This document shows positions 4,065 to 34,738 of a DNA stretch of 36,637 nt, piece after piece. A program made the position numbers and the translations under genes. The stretch is from the NCBI GenBank assembly GCA_038061595.1, contig JBBTYZ010000024.1, positions 1-36,637 of the forward strand, given 5' to 3'. Numbering within the stretch: the first letter of the stretch is position 1; each line of letters opens with the position of its first letter. The DNA comes from Patescibacteria group bacterium. Lineage in GTDB: Bacteria > Patescibacteriota > Minisyncoccia > UBA6257 > GWB1-50-10. The notes under the pieces are model-generated. The model did no database searches, had not been told where the DNA came from, and was given only the letters and a program-made list of their open reading frames with translations.

Positions 4065-4334
4065 AGAACCTATCCCAATAATAATTCCTAACGCGCTACT
4101 TGCCAATTTGGTTTAGAACAAGGCGCGACGACGAGATGTACTCAGACAAGAGTCCATCAAGGAGAAGCAACGCAGTTATAAATCAAATTGGCTGTATCCC
4201 TTCGGGTTGCTGGCCAAATTTAAGATTTCTGCGTTACGCCTCGTCGAAGTATTGACACACATCTCCTCGGCAAGCCTGGAAATCTTAAATTTGTCCAAGC
4301 AACGCGTTCCGGGATTATTATTGAGATAGGTTCT
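4065..4334. repeat. 270-bp palindromic (MITE-like) element, copy 1
   Basis: Terminal IR AGAACCTATCCCAATAATAATTCC / GGGATTATTATTGAGATAGGTTCT (22/24 match), plus two internal IR-bounded arms. Confidence 0.75.
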
Positions 4335-4381: not shown

Positions 4382-4465
4382 TGCCGAGGGAGAGATTTGA
4401 ACTCTCATGCCCTTGCGGGCGCTAGCTCCTAAGGCTAGTGCGTCTGCCAGTTTCGCCACCTCGGC
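4382..4465 (-). tRNA. tRNA-Leu (anticodon TAG)
   Basis: GCCGAGG...CCTCGGC acceptor stem, CTAGC-CTTAGGA-GCTAG anticodon arm, long variable arm, GTTCAAATC T-loop; CCA not encoded. Confidence 0.95.
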
Positions 4466-6140: not shown

Positions 6141-6509
6141 TTAGAACGCGGGGTTGGTACCGGTTGGAAGAGTTGTTGGGACACTAATGCCAACGAAAGT
6201 TCCGAGAATGGCCGGAATAGCGAAGGCTAGAGCGGCAATGACAATCGCAACGACAGCGTAGGTCAACTCCTGTTTAGCCTTCTTCACTTTTTCTTCATCG
6301 CCAGCCGCAGTTAAATATGTAAATGCAGCCAAAATAATGAAAAGCGCCGCGACTATGAAGAATAGATAAGCGGCTATATTAACCACTTGTTTTACCAAAT
6401 TTAAGACGGCATCTACAGTCGTCGGGGCGGCAGCGAAAGCCAAAAAAGGCATTGCAACAAGACCAACGATAACTGATTTTACTACGATATTTTTTAATTT
6501 TAAATTCAT
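6141..6509 (-). CDS. TrbC/VirB2-like pilin
   Basis: Signal peptide ending AFA; two hydrophobic helices flanking YLTAAGDEEKVKKAK. Confidence 0.85.
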   Translation of the reverse strand: MNLKLKNIVVKSVIVGLVAMPFLAFAAAPTTVDAVLNLVKQVVNIAAYLFFIVAALFIILAAFTYLTAAGDEEKVKKAKQELTYAVVAIVIAALAFAIPAILGTFVGISVPTTLPTGTNPAF

Positions 6510-6562
6510 GGAATTAATCGGATAATTCGACCTTTTGAATTGATTTTATTATATCACAATCA

Positions 6563-6925
6563 TTACGAGCCGCTACCAAGGACGCTTTTTATAATTAGCG
6601 CCACCCCTCCGCTTAAGAGTATTATTGTGTATCCGATAACTGCGTAAAGGATGGTCTTTTTCCCCAACTTGAACTTCTCCGGATCGCCTCCGGCGAACAT
6701 CATTTGATAGGCGCCTATGATAATCATTCCGGCAACTATTGGGGCGGCAACCACAATCAAGAAATTAATTATCTTTGTTATGAGCTCAGAAACATCGCTC
6801 ACTCCCAATGGGTTTGCAAGATCTATCGTTCGCGGATTTGTACCACCCGTATCTGCAAACACAAAACTCGAAGACATTACAGAAAGGAATGCGACTAATA
6901 CTGAAGTTTTTAAAATCTTTAACAT
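6563..6925 (-). CDS. TrbC/VirB2-like pilin
   Basis: Signal peptide, LANPLG, MFAGGDPEKFKLGKKTILYAVIG. Confidence 0.85.
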   Translation of the reverse strand: MLKILKTSVLVAFLSVMSSSFVFADTGGTNPRTIDLANPLGVSDVSELITKIINFLIVVAAPIVAGMIIIGAYQMMFAGGDPEKFKLGKKTILYAVIGYTIILLSGGVALIIKSVLGSGS

Positions 6926-6938
6926 CTTTTTAATTATA

Positions 6939-7298
6939 TCAAGAACAGGTGATGCTTGCCCAAGGATAATCAGGGTTGCCGGTTAATACATGAAGAAGGG
7001 TTCCAATTATAACCCAAGCGACCAAGGCAATGGACAATCCGATAACAGCGCTTGTTATTATCTTTTTTCCAGTTGCGAATCGCTCCTCGGAACCTGCCGC
7101 AAACATTAGTATGATGGCGCCATACACCATCATTATAACCGCGATGGGGATGGAAACTTGAAATAGAAATTTGACGATATTCGAGGCAACTACAACCGCA
7201 TCGCAAAAATCACACGGGCCTTTTATGTTGCAGGTTATTCCGCCAGCGCCAGTATTCTGCCAAATATTTATAAATTGAGCCAAAAAAAATTCTTTCAT
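6939..7298 (-). CDS. TrbC/VirB2-like pilin with Cys motif
   Basis: CNIKGPCDFCD, then MFAAGSEERFATGKKIITSAVIG. Confidence 0.85.
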   Translation of the reverse strand: MKEFFLAQFINIWQNTGAGGITCNIKGPCDFCDAVVVASNIVKFLFQVSIPIAVIMMVYGAIILMFAAGSEERFATGKKIITSAVIGLSIALVAWVIIGTLLHVLTGNPDYPWASITCS

Positions 7299-7427
7299 CC
7301 CTCACCCTTGAAGGATTGCTGGCCTCAGCAATACCTTGTTGTTGCTTTTGATTTGACCTTTGGTATTTATGTTCTGGTTCATTGTTTTTATGAATTATTG
7401 ATTGCTGATCCTTCAAGGGTGAGGGAT
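7297..7427 (-). repeat. hairpin element A between stop and start codons
   Basis: Perfect 20-bp IR ATCCCTCACCCTTGAAGGAT (7297-7316 / 7408-7427), overlapping the upstream TAA and the downstream ATG. Confidence 0.85.
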
Positions 7428-8725
7428 TATAGTCTTCTTTGCATAAATCCGGACACTAATTCTTGGGCTTCTTTTAATACTCGAAGCGCATCTTGCCCAG
7501 ACAAAACCGATACTATCATGTCGGAGAAAACTTTGTCGGTCGCAGCGTTGTCAATCTGTGGCCAAGATTTTACAATAAGGGATTGTTTCGCAAAAACATT
7601 CAAATCAAGATCGTTTAAATATTTATTTATCAATTGACGCAAGGCCGGCGGGCGGCGCGTGATTTTGAGATAACTCTCTGCGTTATTTACATCTCCCGCA
7701 AGCGAGACCACAAAGTCGGCGGCAAGATTCAAGACCTTGCTCTGCCTTGAAACTCCGGTTGCCCAGTAATTAGGATAGCTTATTTGTTTTTGCGCTCCCT
7801 GCGGTTGGGGGATATCGGAAACGGAAAAACTCAAGAACGGATTTAATATTTTTAATTTAGGAATTACGGACTGGTAGTCAAAAATCATCGCTACCTTTTC
7901 TCCGCTAAAATCTCTCAAAGAACTGAACGAATCGTCATTCCAGGTATAAACATTGCTCCTTGGATTAGAAAATTGCGTATAAAAATTTAGAGAGTTCAAG
8001 CCTTCGTCGCTCGCGAAGGTCGCCGCCCGGAGATCGTCTGATACCATTTTTGTTCCGGTCTGGAGCATAAGAAAAGACAATAAATCTGGGGCCGAACCAA
8101 TGCTCTTCTGTGATCCACCTATTGCCGCAGCGGCGCGGACAAGTTTGCCCGATTCAGATTTTGTAAGCCGTGGGATTATCGCTTGCAAATCTTCCCAGGT
8201 TTTTGGCGGACCGCTTATCGCCGCCCCGTTAAAAAGGTCTGTATTGTAAATCAAGGCAAGCGAATCTATATACATAGGTAAGGCGTATATGCTTCCGTTC
8301 GCGCTTAAGTCTTTCTCAACTATTTGCGGGAAAAGGTTTCTTAGTTGAACAAGCGAAATCATTGTTGTGGGCAACGGGTACATTTTCCCCATATTCCTTG
8401 GAAGAGAGTTGTTGCGAATCATAAAAACGTCCGGACCCTTTCCTGTAGCAAGAGCATTCAACAAGGCCGGCTCGTAATCAGTTACAGAATCAAAGCCCCT
8501 GTATTCAACCGAAACATTCGGATATTTTATTTTGAAACTCGCTATCGCGGTATCATAGGCGGCACGAGTGTCGAAAACTCCCCAAAATTTGAGATTAGCC
8601 TGTATCTTCGTGGCATCATTGCTAGTATTTAGACCCGGTATCACGCCCGATAAGACGAGAACAACAATAATAATCACAAGACCTATTGATCCTGCTATTA
8701 TAAGTTGGGTTTTATTTAAATTCAT
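7427..8725 (-). CDS. extracellular solute-binding protein, family 1 (sugar-type)
   Basis: N-terminal TM, LKFWG, ALATGKGPDVF, IYALP...DSLALIYNTDLF, PPKTWEDL, FSGEKVAM. Confidence 0.9.
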   Translation of the reverse strand: MNLNKTQLIIAGSIGLVIIIVVLVLSGVIPGLNTSNDATKIQANLKFWGVFDTRAAYDTAIASFKIKYPNVSVEYRGFDSVTDYEPALLNALATGKGPDVFMIRNNSLPRNMGKMYPLPTTMISLVQLRNLFPQIVEKDLSANGSIYALPMYIDSLALIYNTDLFNGAAISGPPKTWEDLQAIIPRLTKSESGKLVRAAAAIGGSQKSIGSAPDLLSFLMLQTGTKMVSDDLRAATFASDEGLNSLNFYTQFSNPRSNVYTWNDDSFSSLRDFSGEKVAMIFDYQSVIPKLKILNPFLSFSVSDIPQPQGAQKQISYPNYWATGVSRQSKVLNLAADFVVSLAGDVNNAESYLKITRRPPALRQLINKYLNDLDLNVFAKQSLIVKSWPQIDNAATDKVFSDMIVSVLSGQDALRVLKEAQELVSGFMQRRL

Positions 8726-12344: not shown

Positions 12345-13436
12345 ATGAACACGACAAATAATAAAGCTTACTTGTTGCAACTTTTAAAAAGTAGGGGGGA
12401 CATACTCTCCGTGCTTAAAGTTGGCGATCTTGTAACTGGTGCAGTATTGGAGGGGGGCGCAAATAAAATAGTGGTTGACCTAGGGAAGCACGGCACCGGC
12501 ATTATATACCGCGGGGAGATACAAAACGCCCGCGAGTTAGTGAAAAATCTGAAAATCGGAGACCCCGTGCATGCCAAGGTCGTAGAGACGGACAACAGCG
12601 AAGGCGTTGTTGAACTATCCCTAACTGAGGCGGGGAGACAGAAAGCTTGGGCAGGGATAAAAGAGATCCAAGACAAAGACGAAGTAATAAAATTCGTTCC
12701 GAAGTCATTCAATAAGGGCGGGTTGATAGGAGAACTCCATGGAATTCAAGCCTTTCTTCCTATCTCACAACTCGGCACTGCAAATTATCCTAAGGTTTCA
12801 ACTGATGACAGAACACAAATAGCAGCAGCCCTGGAAAAACTTGTTGGCAAAGAAATAGAAGCAAAAATAATCGATGTTAATCCACGAACCAATAAGCTAA
12901 TAGTTTCTGAACGAGCCGCAACAGAAATTAGCCTCAAAGAACTCGCAAAAAATTATTCCGTAGGCCAAATTATTGAAGGCGTTGTCTCTGGAGTTGCTGA
13001 TTTTGGAGCATTTGTAAAATTTACGGACAATCCAGAAGTAGAAGGCTTAATCCACGTTTCTGAACTTGATTACAAGGTTGTAGACAACCCGAAAGAAATA
13101 ATAAACGTTGACGATGTCGTAAAAGCGAAAATCATAGACATAAAAGATGGCAAAATCTCTCTATCCTTGAAAGCCCTAAAGGAAGATCCTTGGCAAAGTT
13201 TGGCTATAAAGTATAAAGCGGGCGCCGTCGTAAAAGGCAGCGCTTACGCGTATCATCCGTTCGGAGCAATTATTAATTTGGACAAGGAAATTCAGGGACA
13301 AATACACGTCTCAGAGTTCGGAGGAGTGGAGGAAATGAAGAAAGAAATTGTTCTGGGCAAGGAATATAAATTTACAATAGAAAGTGTAAATCTAGAAGAA
13401 AAGAGAATAAATTTGAAATTCAAACCCGCGGCATAG
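12345..13436 (+). CDS. rpsA: 30S ribosomal protein S1-like (four S1 domains)
   Basis: NKGGLI..GIQAFLPISQL, GVVSGVADFGAFV, EGLIHVSEL, KISLSLK. Confidence 0.9.
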   Translation: MNTTNNKAYLLQLLKSRGDILSVLKVGDLVTGAVLEGGANKIVVDLGKHGTGIIYRGEIQNARELVKNLKIGDPVHAKVVETDNSEGVVELSLTEAGRQKAWAGIKEIQDKDEVIKFVPKSFNKGGLIGELHGIQAFLPISQLGTANYPKVSTDDRTQIAAALEKLVGKEIEAKIIDVNPRTNKLIVSERAATEISLKELAKNYSVGQIIEGVVSGVADFGAFVKFTDNPEVEGLIHVSELDYKVVDNPKEIINVDDVVKAKIIDIKDGKISLSLKALKEDPWQSLAIKYKAGAVVKGSAYAYHPFGAIINLDKEIQGQIHVSEFGGVEEMKKEIVLGKEYKFTIESVNLEEKRINLKFKPAA

Positions 13437-13706
13437 TCTTCTATCTCACAAATATCACGAATTTGGCGGAGCGAATTTTGAAGACAGATTCGCGACGCGA
13501 TGAGCGAAGTGTGCCGATAGGCACATGAGCGAAGAGCAACAAAGAAGCTGGCGAAAATTCGCCCGCTCCGCAAGAAGAAACTGAATAATGAGCGCTTTCT
13601 TCGTTGCTCCTCCTCAATGTGGTTATCACCACGCTTTCGTCGTCACGCCTCGAACCCATCTCATTATTAAACTTCCAAATTTCGCGAGATTTGTGGGATA
13701 GAAGAC
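13436..13706. repeat. 271-bp palindromic (MITE-like) element, copy 2
   Basis: Terminal IR GTCTTCTATCTCACAAATATCACGAATTTGG / CCAAATTTCGCGAGATTTGTGGGATAGAAGAC; two internal arms. Confidence 0.75.
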
Positions 13707-32227: not shown

Positions 32228-32866
32228 ATGGCAGAAACATCATTACCAACACAAAAATTTGTAGATGTGAAATCAATAAAAGATGGTATCCTTTATTTAA
32301 AAAATGGAGGGTTACGTCAATTACTAATAGTAGGTGGAATAAACTTTGACCTTAAATCCGAAGAAGAACAAAACCTAATACTTTCGAGTTTTCAAAATTT
32401 TTTGAACACGCTTGATTTTTCTGTCCAATTTTTCATCCATTCCAGAAAAATAAACATTGATGAGTATTTGGAAATGTTGGGAAAAAGAAAGACTGAAGAA
32501 ACGAACGAACTCTTAAGGATTCAAATAGAAGATTACATTTCGTTTATTCGTTCGTTTGTTGCCGAAAATCCAATAATAAGTAAAACTTTTTTTACGGTTG
32601 TGCCCTACGATCCAGTCTTTATGTCAAATAAAACAGGAGGGATTTTTAGTCTGTTTCAGAAGAAAACCGACGGGACAAAACAGCTCGAAGCCCAAAAACA
32701 AATCGAGCAATTATCACATCGCGTGAATCAGGTAATAAGCGGCTTCCAACAAATTGGTTTAAGGGCAACTGCATTGAACGACGAAGAACTTATCGAGCTC
32801 TTCTATAATATGTATAATCCCCAACTGATTGAAAAAAAGGGCCTAGAGATAGCCAAACAAAAATGA
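32228..32866 (+). CDS. VirB4/TraC N-terminal-like partner protein
   Basis: TQKFV, INFDLKSEEEQ, FLNTLDFSVQ, FFTVVPY, ELFYNMYNP; lies between PrgI and VirB4. Confidence 0.8.
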   Translation: MAETSLPTQKFVDVKSIKDGILYLKNGGLRQLLIVGGINFDLKSEEEQNLILSSFQNFLNTLDFSVQFFIHSRKINIDEYLEMLGKRKTEETNELLRIQIEDYISFIRSFVAENPIISKTFFTVVPYDPVFMSNKTGGIFSLFQKKTDGTKQLEAQKQIEQLSHRVNQVISGFQQIGLRATALNDEELIELFYNMYNPQLIEKKGLEIAKQK

Positions 32867-32988
32867 ATCCCGTTAGAGACAAACAAAGCATCAATCTCAT
32901 GATTTACAACAAAACAAAAACAATCCACACAACAAAGGTCAGGTCGTCTATCTACGGAAGCGCAATCGCTTCCTGTCTCTAACGGGAT
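32867..32988 (+). repeat. hairpin element B between stop and start codons
   Basis: Perfect 15-bp IR ATCCCGTTAGAGACA / TGTCTCTAACGGGAT; TGAA direct repeat on both sides. Confidence 0.85.
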
Positions 32989-34738
32989 GAAAATAAAGGT
33001 TCCGCAAGCATATAAACCGGGCGCCGAAGATGTCCCTAATGTAATCGCCCCTTCGGGAATGGCCGTTGAATCAAATTATCTGAAACTAGGTGATTATTTC
33101 GCAAAAACATTTTTTGTCTTTACCTATCCAAGGTTTTTATCGAGCGGGTGGTTCTCCCCGATAATAAACATGGCCGAAATGATGGATATTTCAATTTTCA
33201 CTCATCCAATGGATACCGCCTTGGCTCTAAAAAATCTAAAAAAGAAGGTTGCGCAAATTGAAGCTGAGCTTTCAGAAAAACAAGAAAAGGGTTCGGTACG
33301 CGATCCCGTCTTGGAAACCGCCTATCAAGACGTGGAAAATTTAAGGGATTCTCTTCAACAGGCGAGAGAAAAACTTTTTGAGGTTGGGATTTATATAACA
33401 ATTTACGGCTCAAGCGAAGAGGGTCTTCGCAAACTAGAAAACACCTTGGAATCAATGCTCGAATCAAAGCTTGTTTATATAAAACCGTCCCTTTTTAGAC
33501 AGCTAGAGGGTTTCAATTCAACGCTCCCTTTGGGACAAGACCGACTTCAAGCACACACGCCTCTCAATTCTGGTCCAGCTTCGTCTATCTTTCCCTTTAT
33601 TTCACCAGACCTTACTTCTGACAAAGGGATTATGTATGGCGTCAATCTCCATAACAATGGTTTGGTAATTTTTGATAGATTTTCTTTAGAGAATGCGAAC
33701 AGCGTTGTGTTCGCAAAATCTGGCTCAGGAAAGTCATATGCTAGCAAACTTGGAATTATTCGCTCTTTGATGATGGGTCAAAATGTTATTGTGATTGACC
33801 CAGAAAATGAATATCAGAACTTAGCGAATGCCGTAGGTGGAAGTTATTTTAAAATCTCGCTTACTTCCCCGAACCACGTAAATCCTTTTGATATACCAGT
33901 AATCCCAGAAGGTGAGGAGCCAGCGGATGTATTTAAGTCTCATATTCTAAATCTAACCGGGCTGGTGAAGCTTATGTTAAAAGAGGTAACCCCAGAAGAA
34001 GATGCGCTCTTGGATAGAGTTATCAACGAAACCTATGCTTCGCGCGACATCACGCCAGAAAGTTTTTCTGCAGACACAGTAATGCAACCGCCCCTCTTAG
34101 GAGATTTGCAAACAATTTTAGAAAACACCGATGGCGGCAAAAACATCGCAACGCGTTTGGATAAATTTGTGCACGGCTCTTACGCCGGTTTCACGAATGC
34201 CCCAACGAACGTAGATATAAAAAATCGCTTGATAGTTTTCTCTATTCGGGATTTAGAAGAAGAATTAAGGCCAATTGCCATGTATATAGTTTTGAACTTC
34301 GTTTGGAATCTTGTGCGATCGGAATTAAAACAACGACTTCTAATCATTGACGAAGCTTGGTGGATGATGAAATACAAAGACAGCGCCCAATTTCTTTTCG
34401 GACTCGTGAAGCGGGCGAGAAAGTATTACTTGGGCATAACGACGATTACTCAAGATGTAGAAGATTTTCTTAAATCCGAATACGGCAGACCAATTGTTAC
34501 GAATTCCTCAATACAGCTATTAATGAAGCAATCGCCGTCTTCGATTGGAGCGGTAGCGCAAGCATTCGCCTTAACCGAGGGGGAAAAAGCCTTTCTTCTA
34601 GAAGCTGGAGTAGGAGAGGGGCTTTTCTTTGCGGGCATGAAACACGTGGCAATAAAAATAATCCCTTCGTACACAGAAGACCAAATAATAACAACCAATC
34701 CAGAACAAATAATGGAAATAAAGGGAATTAAAAAATGA
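32987..34738 (+). CDS. virB4: VirB4-like type IV secretion ATPase
   Basis: AKSGSGKS Walker A, VIDPENEY, NPFD, LLIIDEAW Walker B, KRARKY, TQDVEDF, GEGLFF. Confidence 0.93.
   Translation: MKIKVPQAYKPGAEDVPNVIAPSGMAVESNYLKLGDYFAKTFFVFTYPRFLSSGWFSPIINMAEMMDISIFTHPMDTALALKNLKKKVAQIEAELSEKQEKGSVRDPVLETAYQDVENLRDSLQQAREKLFEVGIYITIYGSSEEGLRKLENTLESMLESKLVYIKPSLFRQLEGFNSTLPLGQDRLQAHTPLNSGPASSIFPFISPDLTSDKGIMYGVNLHNNGLVIFDRFSLENANSVVFAKSGSGKSYASKLGIIRSLMMGQNVIVIDPENEYQNLANAVGGSYFKISLTSPNHVNPFDIPVIPEGEEPADVFKSHILNLTGLVKLMLKEVTPEEDALLDRVINETYASRDITPESFSADTVMQPPLLGDLQTILENTDGGKNIATRLDKFVHGSYAGFTNAPTNVDIKNRLIVFSIRDLEEELRPIAMYIVLNFVWNLVRSELKQRLLIIDEAWWMMKYKDSAQFLFGLVKRARKYYLGITTITQDVEDFLKSEYGRPIVTNSSIQLLMKQSPSSIGAVAQAFALTEGEKAFLLEAGVGEGLFFAGMKHVAIKIIPSYTEDQIITTNPEQIMEIKGIKK

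Follow-up and report, generated by a model that had tools for sequence, protein, structure and literature searches.

We looked into a 120-nt hairpin element, here called element B, in a contig of 36,637 nt (the window, meaning that whole stretch of DNA) from a Patescibacteria group bacterium (assembly GCA_038061595.1, contig JBBTYZ010000024.1, here C24). The sequence analysed comprised the 547,505 bases of the assembly in 40 contigs, with a completeness of 93.6% and a coding density of about 88%. B lies on the forward strand between two open reading frames (ORFs) that are predicted to be two parts of one ATPase of the VirB4/TraC type: the P-loop ATPase is in the downstream ORF (virB4-C), and the N-terminal TraC domain is spread over virB4-C and the upstream ORF (virB4-N), with TraC_F_IV matches of both ORFs that fall below the Pfam cut-off. 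The original prediction for this DNA had placed B before virB4; the element actually sits between the two ORFs of a split virB4. We put at roughly three in four the probability that B is a gene-less, 120-bp member of a family of mini-elements of Patescibacteria, whose full form of about 277 bp would carry as its sole gene a GIY-YIG nuclease of 87 to 94 residues resembling Slx1 and UPF0213.

The sequence on the 5' side of B reads AAA, the TGA stop of virB4-N, A and then TCCCGTTAGAGACA, and the 3' side reads TGTCTCTAACGGGA and then TGAA. An inverted-repeat search returned terminal arms of 15 nt, 100% complementary to each other and 92 nt apart (Table 1). The original prediction had noticed TGAA on both sides and had held that removing B together with one TGAA restores an ATGA stop/start overlap. 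Both TGAA copies are present, and a relative (genome G020, locus L057) has ATGAAAATAAA at the equivalent empty site, as in the window minus the element and one TGAA. The folding energy of the B region as RNA was -38.3 kcal/mol, compared with -17.6 +/- 3.2 for 200 dinucleotide-preserving shuffles, none of which was as low (z = -6.46). Covariance model R1 gave B a score of 116 bits, B itself being among the sequences from which R1 was built, and Rfam had no match to the element at either the gathering or the E-value threshold. The CAAAGGTCA motif has five copies genome-wide, two of these within B and element A, a second hairpin of the window that is described below. No terminator-like site and no plus-strand promoter-like site was predicted within B; given the lack of a terminator-like site, read-through is expected.

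Table 1. Positions of element B and its parts, of the two virB4 ORFs, and of related elements. Positions are those of the window unless another contig is named.
Feature	Position	Strand	Remarks
Element B	32868..32987	+	120-nt gene-less copy; ends TCCCGTTAGAGACA...TGTCTCTAACGGGA; contig C24
5' terminal inverted-repeat arm of B	32867..32881	+	
3' terminal inverted-repeat arm of B	32974..32988	+	Its final A 32987 and T 32988 begin the rebuilt ATG
Original virB4-C start codon plus AA (ATGAA)	32863..32867	+	
TGAA, 5' copy of target duplication	32864-32867	+	
TGAA, 3' copy of target duplication	32988..32991	+	
CAAAGGTCA motif in B	32933..32941	+	Common to element A; AAAGGTC in copies of other genera
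Subterminal hairpin GGAAGCG-CAAT-CGCTTCC	32956..32973	+	Immediately 5' of the 3' arm of B
39-codon relic ORF of B	32863..32982	+	From the old ATG to TAA 32980-32982, 4 nt before ATG 32987
virB4-N ORF (predicted), 212 aa, separate gene	32228..32866	+	TraC_F_IV profile positions 133-173; stop TGA 32864-32866
virB4-C ORF (predicted), 583 aa	32987..34738	+	On the rebuilt ATG; P-loop_TraG E = 2e-27; TraC_F_IV profile positions 276-374
Long copy, 277 nt	C14 3088-3364		Same arms as B
Long copy, 277 nt	C16 7805-8081		Same arms as B
Element A, 129 nt	7298-7426	-	Arms TCCCTCACCCTTGAAGGAT; last A is the A of the pilin ATG
Type IV secretion system (T4SS) pilin gene, 119 aa, host of A	6939..7298	-	T4SS_pilin E = 2.5e-10

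A scan of the assembly for inverted repeats and for the end motif returned 13 copies with CCCGTTAGA-type ends, which read TCCCGTTAGA...TCTAACGGGA or CCCC...GGGG. They are located on C11, C14, C16 (two), C24 (B), C27 (two), C29 and C37 (four, plus one nested). To describe gene context we used 13 elements, namely the 12 non-nested copies and element A, leaving out the nested copy. An ORF of 100 to 726 amino acids started at offset -1 from the element end in 12 of these 13, with a start codon rebuilt from the element's last base (A or G) and the TG that follows it; the single element off a start codon was a GC-rich copy of 70 nt on C29. The 5' flanks were ATGAA in six cases, GTGAA in two and TTGAA in one, which is a start codon plus AA and matches the TGAA on the 3' side (9 of 13 flanks read NTGAA), and the remaining four were ATTCA, TTTAA, TATAA (element A) and a TTGA pair. 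The genome has 6294 TGAA sites; 15.2% of them follow an A, G or T and open at least 100 codons, and 2.4% are the first start in their frame. Outside ORFs, as delimited by a crude gene mask, 123 of the 822 TGAA sites (15%) belong to predicted start codons, giving a probability of 1.4e-9 for at least 12 of 13. These results indicate that the placement on start codons is not due to chance and that it exceeds what is expected from the purging of gene-disrupting insertions.

The host genes encode threonyl-tRNA synthetase (thrS), SMC, ClpP, PilM, a cohesin-domain protein, virB4-C, the pilin and several unknowns. Because these genes are unrelated to each other, the link to T4SS and pilus genes, which had been noted for both copies along with a possible co-option for regulation, is a coincidence of the window. 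Nor did ATGA junctions turn out to be the target, as had been proposed: an ORF ended on the 5' TGA in only 2 of the 13 elements, and in the relative G019 a copy of the family lies on the ATG of virB4-C while the upstream ORF stops at a separate TAA. The target is therefore the start codon and not the ATGA overlap.

A GC-rich class of 63 to 78 nt has the same CCCGTTAGA ends and two GC-rich inner hairpins. In this genome (G000) it is represented by G000:C29 1763-1832 and by C37 6541-6614, the nested copy, which sits inside another element. Many copies are found in the relatives G036, G013 and G052, mostly off start codons, and the repeats on either side of them look like TTGA(C), in the manner of a -35 box.

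Two of the copies, on C14 and C16, are long (277 nt) and contain an ORF of 94 codons that matches the GIY-YIG family PF01541 (E = 1.7e-17 and 2e-16; bit scores of 63.9 and 60.5, the cut-off being 22.6). This ORF shares its frame with a GTG or ATG in the 5' flank, which is the host gene's original start codon. This flank start codon and the 5' arm together encode M/V-N-P-V-R-D, and the ORF extends across the 3' arm (...R-F-L-S-L-T-G) until it stops at a TGA, which overlaps the host's rebuilt ATG. Between them the long copies are 89% identical in nucleotide sequence, and their differences are distributed 9/4/19 over the three codon positions, with 17 synonymous and 10 nonsynonymous codon changes, a pattern as expected if the predicted protein is under purifying selection. 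Across 14 sequences, Y4, Y6, Y17, G19, R27 and H31 were invariant and E51 nearly so; the Tyr, Tyr-x-Gly, Arg, His and Glu positions are those with catalytic roles in GIY-YIG enzymes. A structural model of the predicted nuclease (pLDDT 89.5) had a GIY-YIG fold, with 1zg2, Slx1, 1ywl and HIGLE as its best matches; Foldseek ranked 1zg2 first (E = 1.9e-4), with Slx1 and HIGLE chains next and I-TevI and UvrC behind them. The folds closest to the predicted one (UPF0213 BH0048, Slx1 and HIGLE) are those of structure-specific nucleases that cut branched DNA. In NCBIfam there was only a weak match, below the cut-off, to a group I intron endonuclease family.

B and the long copies share their arms, and an inner inverted repeat of the long copies (GGAAGCGCTTTAA / TTAAAGCGCTTCC) brackets most of the ORF. 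B has its subterminal hairpin where the long copies have this inner repeat, and in the stretch before it B matches a long copy at 20 of 27 bases, counted by eye. A gapped alignment of B to a long copy gave no convincing overall match. The gene-less copies of the B type thus look like internal-deletion derivatives of the long form, although the overall alignment is weak.

A third, divergent GIY-YIG ORF (34% identical) is found on the minus strand of C37 (G000:C37 ~13070-13580, locus L003), immediately upstream of a tRNA gene, and the first ~27 bases of that gene occur a second time on the ORF's other side. Distant homologues in L027 and L029 also adjoin tRNA genes, which suggests a candidate tRNA-targeting branch of GIY-YIG cassettes.

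The original prediction had called for a search for an autonomous insertion sequence (IS) with CCC...GGG ends; the forms that we found in its place carry only the GIY-YIG ORF. We considered whether B could instead be an ordinary MITE (a miniature transposable element with inverted repeats) of a conventional IS with a DDE or HUH transposase, encoded in an unassembled part of the genome, with the GIY-YIG ORF as a passenger. The anatomy of inverted repeats plus a target site duplication is the usual one for MITEs, and with 40 contigs and 93.6% completeness a transposase gene could be missing. However, we found no match in the genome to Y1_Tnp (PF01797), TnpB (PF07282), DDE_3 or DDE_Tnp_1, the only four families searched, while control genomes do match PF01797 and PF07282. 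Furthermore, both arms are coding in the nuclease ORF, an arrangement seen in 13 of the 14 closest homologues and unlike that of a passenger, and the ORF appears to be under purifying selection. We regard this explanation as very improbable.

We then extended the comparison to relatives (61 genomes of the same family and order). The nuclease was detected in 48 of the 61 genomes, with up to 13 matches per genome. Among the 14 closest homologues across genera (at least 65% identity, one being an own copy), the stop TGA overlapped the ATG or GTG of an ORF of 139 to 451 amino acids in 13, one of these having an internal stop. Arms of the closest homologues were mostly of the CCCGTTAGAG type, and more distant ones (e.g., L025, L028 and L030) had other arms. 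In three homologues the ATG of the flank was the only available start codon, which indicates that the nuclease ORF depends on the start codon of its host. The short pattern CCCGTTAGA-N40-140-TCTAACGGG occurred in 33 of the 61 genomes, with up to 23 copies, and its reversed control in none. The duplicated bases differed between elements (TGAA, TGGA, TGAG, TGTA, TGAT); they therefore represent a real duplication of TG plus two bases rather than a fixed part of the element. At the start of smc there is an element in this genome (C27 2714-2820) and, with other arms (CTGACACTATCGGGAT), in G015 (L138, G015:C10); 23 of 25 smc loci have no element, and these genes start within one or two codons of the rebuilt start. 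In two genomes, pairs of CCCGTTAGA arms surround what is apparently a whole tRNA gene (G036:C2:16260-16367 and G017:C5:5519-5621).

The relatives also bear on the history of the host gene. We had first suspected that the element interrupts one continuous virB4 gene. A homologue of virB4-N was present in 40 of 41 genomes, and in 36 of the 40 rows its open frame measured 213 to 263 amino acids; the exceptions were 169 (at a contig end), 324, 405 and 816 amino acids, the last being a fused form in G041. At 25 loci where the virB4 junction could be compared, we counted 4 ATGA overlaps, 16 short spacers (for 2 of which the script had picked an upstream alternative start) and 5 inserts of at least 118 nt, so that 20 of 25 junctions had no insert. 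Since relatives mostly have the N-terminal part as an ORF of its own, with separate stop and start, the split of virB4 is, judging from these sequences, ancestral, and the empty site is present in relatives. This rules out an interruption by the element, as well as translational bypass or ribosome hopping (AAA-UGA ... AUG-AAA) over the hairpin. Programmed bypass of the T4 gene 60 type was likewise rejected, the N-terminal part being a separate ORF in those 36 of 40 rows and having a stop of its own, followed downstream by a distinct start.

Other inserts were seen at the same junction. In L052, from another genus (G013:C30, minus strand, 1043-1453), a 479-nt insert between virB4-N and virB4-C contains an ORF of 136 amino acids for a predicted PD-(D/E)XK nuclease (PF13366, E = 1.3e-17) between inverted repeats of the CACGAACAACACGAAC type, making it a second kind of mini nuclease cassette at this junction. 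L056 (G037) has a hairpin of 122 nt, and L044 (G003) has an AT-rich spacer of 118 nt.

Next, we evaluated whether the structure and the orientation of the element are conserved. The orientation set comprised 21 elements of 116 to 124 nt: the copy at virB4 in G019 and 20 picked by hand, for a visible hairpin, among the matches listed. The hairpin-proximal end adjoined the ATG of a long frame in 15 of the 21; two others had an ATG that opened only 37 or 70 codons, one had an ATG at the opposite end, and three had none. Adding three own-genome copies to the same 21 gave the covariation alignment of 24 B-type copies, in which nine outer arm positions were invariant by the search pattern. In this alignment 95.1% of cells were paired, compared with 84.2% in shuffles. 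The covariation score was 0.343, compared with 0.147 in shuffled alignments (none of 500 reached the observed value) and 0.06 to 0.11 with slid partners; 20 of the 24 rows, however, had been picked for showing the hairpin, so that helix 2 is biased. In the subterminal hairpin both sides changed in 6 of 7 pairs, and 93.5% of cells were paired. The structure of the element is thus conserved, as had been proposed for the family, which is compatible with action at the level of either DNA or RNA.

One explanation at the RNA level is that the hairpin is chiefly a device co-opted for regulation, whose stem masks the virB4-C AUG (and, in element A, that of the pilin gene). Translation would then depend on upstream ribosomes, on temperature or on an RNase III cut that leaves a nearly leaderless mRNA. 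The 3' arm does include the A and U of the AUG, the folds are very stable (z = -6.5 for B and -7.2 for A), the orientation to the host gene is fixed, the stems covary and read-through is expected. However, the same arms bound the nuclease gene in the long copies and are coding there, the hosts are unrelated genes that include thrS, smc and clpP, the relay ORF described next is not conserved, and Rfam has no match. Moreover, DNA hairpins that a nuclease recognises would be expected to covary and to keep a fixed orientation just as much. An RNA device is in our judgment quite unlikely.

The original prediction had further described a 39-codon upstream ORF that opens at the old ATG and ends at 32982, 4 nt before the virB4 ATG. 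This ORF is present and encodes the peptide given. It had also been proposed that such a frame, relaying translation through the insert, is kept near the ATG; a lack of conservation there had been named as the result that would speak against it, and this is what we observed. Of 8 own-genome gene-less copies that have a 5' start codon, 4 had a relay frame open as far as the 3'-arm stop; the frame reached the 3' arm in 5 of 18 aligned copies, compared with 14% of shuffled interiors. The relic ORF of B and that of its closest paralogue differed at 5/11/9 sites by codon position, with no excess at the third position and hence no sign of coding constraint. In the layout of the 3' arm, two frames stop beside the ATG and the third reads into the gene. 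From the 4 of 8, 5 of 18 and 5/11/9 results we conclude that the 39-codon ORF is a leftover of the nuclease ORF design and is not conserved.

To look for signs of mobility, we compared B with other copies and with metagenome data. B was 81% identical, without gaps over 130 nt, to a copy on C37 at an unrelated gene (z = 13.4), and its similarity to the G019 copy at the orthologous virB4-C start was much lower (z = 4.1); the two virB4 insertions are therefore probably independent. In the contigs of four groundwater metagenome runs from two studies, some of them possible sources of this DNA, arm depth was 87 to 226 units, compared with 5 to 14 in the flanks, and the loose ends of other metagenome contigs began at 32859-32863 and 32991-32994.

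These observations also bear on a second explanation, homing rather than transposition, in which the GIY-YIG enzyme would cut element-free start regions and recombinational repair would copy the element in from a filled allele or an ectopic copy, with the short duplication as the microhomology used in repair. GIY-YIG enzymes are described as classical homing endonucleases. The same sites are used in different genera, both at the virB4-C start (G000 and G019) and at the smc start (G000 and G015), and the arm depths above show the elements to be very abundant over contigs of the same groundwater communities. On the other hand, the copies lie at many unrelated genes within one genome, gene-less copies that are 81% alike occupy different genes, and the defined inverted-repeat ends and the variable 4-bp direct repeat are hallmarks of cut-and-insert movement. 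The nuclease is also without the DNA-binding domain of known homing enzymes. We consider homing an unlikely, though not negligible, explanation.

Returning to the reading of B as a gene-less mobile element, the features that mark it as a MITE are its terminal inverted repeats, target duplication, multiple copies, longer coding relative and empty site in relatives. The copies, their placement and the covariation likewise bear out the earlier description of B as a nonautonomous, structure-conserved repeat with a 4-bp duplication that keeps stop and start signals. B inserted at the start codon of virB4-C, whose ATG overlapped the stop of virB4-N (ATGA) in a virB4 that was ancestrally split. We further propose the following. 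The nuclease from the two long copies would move B-type copies in trans, recognising DNA in which the arms and the subterminal hairpin form a hairpin or cruciform; if a DNA hairpin is what it recognises, then the stem of B would primarily be a feature of the DNA. virB4-C would still be translated via the rebuilt ATG. Ribosomes may be relayed across B, plausibly by termination-reinitiation: they would terminate at UGA 32864-32866 and reinitiate at AUG 32863, translate the relic ORF across the stem, terminate again at UAA 32980-32982 and reinitiate at AUG 32987. This relay would be inherited from the layout of the nuclease ORF, and gene-less copies would not require it as a conserved feature.

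In its widest form, which we put forward tentatively and with somewhat less than even confidence, the proposal is that the family represents a new class of prokaryotic transposable element and the smallest autonomous one (~277 bp). Its sole enzyme, a minimal Slx1-like nuclease, would act on the hairpin or cruciform ends of the element, and the element would enter start codons in one orientation by a 4-bp TGNN stagger. The element would borrow the host's ribosome-binding site and start codon for its ORF and return the ribosomes via ATGA, gene-less copies would be moved in trans, and the choice of start codons would be mechanistic, with some feature of initiation regions being read, and not only a matter of selection.

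Several observations weigh against the reading of B as a gene-less mobile element of this family. The link between the nuclease and mobility is associative only, and the protein is a catalytic domain of 87 to 94 amino acids without a separate DNA-binding domain. A duplication as unspecific as TGNN does not by itself explain a start-codon specificity beyond purging. When we sampled placement in relatives (33 elements at 30 loci, one per genome, with the start required to open at least 80 codons), only 15 of 33 were on a start codon, or 13 of 21 elements of at least 100 nt and 2 of 12 shorter ones. The duplication is absent or degenerate in 4 of the 13 context elements (those on C11, at C27 8526, A, and the C29 copy with TTGA). 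Beyond the ends and the stretch before the inner repeat, the interior of B resembles the long copies only loosely. The relay ORF is absent from most gene-less copies, whose hosts include essential genes. No contig of the four metagenome runs joined across B, so no empty allele was seen, in contigs that drop rare variants. The selection of rows that biases helix 2 belongs here as well.

The window holds a second hairpin, element A, between a solute-binding-protein gene and a T4SS pilin gene, with a perfect stem of 20 bp (fold z = -7.2). The original prediction had assigned A and B to the same family. The two do have in common TCCC...GGGA ends, a 3' end that carries an ATG, the CAAAGGTCA motif and a small hairpin on the 3' side, and the B-type covariance model matched A over its full length and on the correct strand (23.1 bits, rough E 0.03), as the best match outside the family, followed by one at 15.6 bits. 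However, their interiors aligned no better than shuffles (z = 1.3; 238 of 2000 shuffles reached the score), a plain MAFFT alignment of A and B was uninformative, and we found no coding parent for A. The exact 16-nt arms of A were present in one other genome, G037, in two copies. All three A-type copies end on the ATG of an ORF of at least 119 amino acids, their interiors share AAAGGTC or AAAGGCC, and one has an ATGGA duplication. These results weakly suggest that A is a sister subfamily of B. The 5' flank of A (~7427-7433, minus strand) reads TATAAT, of which TAA is the stop of the upstream solute-binding-protein gene, and A has no clear target duplication left. The pilin gene is one of three tandem T4SS pilin-like genes (119, 120 and 122 amino acids; 6141-7298, minus strand) that are well separated from the virB4 cluster; gyrA and the solute-binding-protein gene are upstream of them.

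Another repeat family, of ~270 nt, was seen in the window (4065-4334 and 13436-13706) and on other contigs (G000:C19 8037-8305 and C12 17763-18033). It has terminal inverted repeats of 20 to 29 nt, several internal hairpins and conserved blocks GACGACGA ... GAGGAGGAGCAACGC, with no consistent ORF and no Rfam match; one copy adjoins a tRNA gene (4382-4465).

If the nuclease does move the elements, no known IS family uses such an enzyme, and the lower size limit for autonomous mobile DNA would be a new one. The habit of settling on start codons and restoring them would account for the spread of a parasite at low cost through a streamlined genome, even onto the essential thrS, smc and clpP. For annotation, the start codons, small ORFs and intergenic hairpins of Patescibacteria are liable to be misread unless the family is recognised, and at the virB4 locus the hairpin is not a regulator specific to the T4SS. 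A nuclease of such small size with a defined DNA hairpin as its target could also be a useful tool, as has been argued for Ssn, the nuclease of a system compared below.

Finally, we compared the family with known systems. Bacterial MITEs with a parent IS (e.g., Correia/NEMIS of Neisseria, RUP and ERIC) are multicopy, cotranscribed elements of ~100 to 150 bp with terminal inverted repeats, a short duplication and a longer coding relative. The B family is like them in size, in its inverted repeats and short duplication and in having ends in common with a longer coding element; unlike them, its parent measures just 277 bp and codes for a GIY-YIG nuclease instead of a transposase from any known IS family, and it inserts on start codons in one orientation with the ATG rebuilt. 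IS200/IS605 and REP/RAYT systems rely on a Y1 HUH transposase, and both terminal inverted repeats and a target duplication are absent from them. Shared with these are the DNA hairpins, a short asymmetric target, oriented insertion and gene-less families of palindromic repeats, whereas the elements here have inverted repeats and a target duplication, and the genome has no Y1 or TnpB match.

Among nuclease systems, the nearest in architecture is Ssn/NTS (Chenal et al., Nat Commun 2025, PMC11893778), in which the gene of a single-domain GIY-YIG protein is flanked by inverted hairpin repeats (NTS/SRM) that also exist as many orphan copies, an architecture that its authors liken to an insertion sequence. 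Ssn corresponds to CDD family cd10448, is characterised by site-specific cleavage restricted to single-stranded DNA, and is reported mainly from Pseudomonadati; the word Patescibacteria is absent from the main text of that paper. Our family likewise has a single-domain GIY-YIG protein of ~94 amino acids, inverted hairpin repeats that flank the gene and orphan repeats in the genome. It differs from Ssn/NTS as described there in its start-codon placement, target duplication, coding arms and apparent translational hijack, and the nearest solved relatives of its nuclease are UPF0213 and Slx1. With UPF0213 (BH0048, 1zg2; EF2693, 1ywl) and Slx1 it shares the same minimal GIY-YIG fold, with a sequence match to 1zg2 at E = 2e-9. 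A 2006 survey of the superfamily (PMC1564403), in the part that concerns them, treats prokaryotic Slx1-like proteins as vertically inherited repair enzymes; the gene here, unlike those of such repair proteins, is multicopy and lies between inverted repeats. Free-standing GIY-YIG homing genes such as those of the T4 Seg proteins (PMC2330249) are also selfish genes between intact host genes, but those are described with a DNA-binding domain and one cognate site, and with neither inverted-repeat ends nor gene-less derivatives. Full-text literature searches turned up no account of GIY-YIG elements that have inverted-repeat ends and lie on start codons, and the family appears undescribed, being set apart from Ssn by the latter's published main-text description. 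What this case adds is the insertion at the ATGA-coupled junction of a split virB4, the recurrent use of the same start codons across genera, a placement beyond selection against gene disruption and evidence for a dispensable relay ORF.

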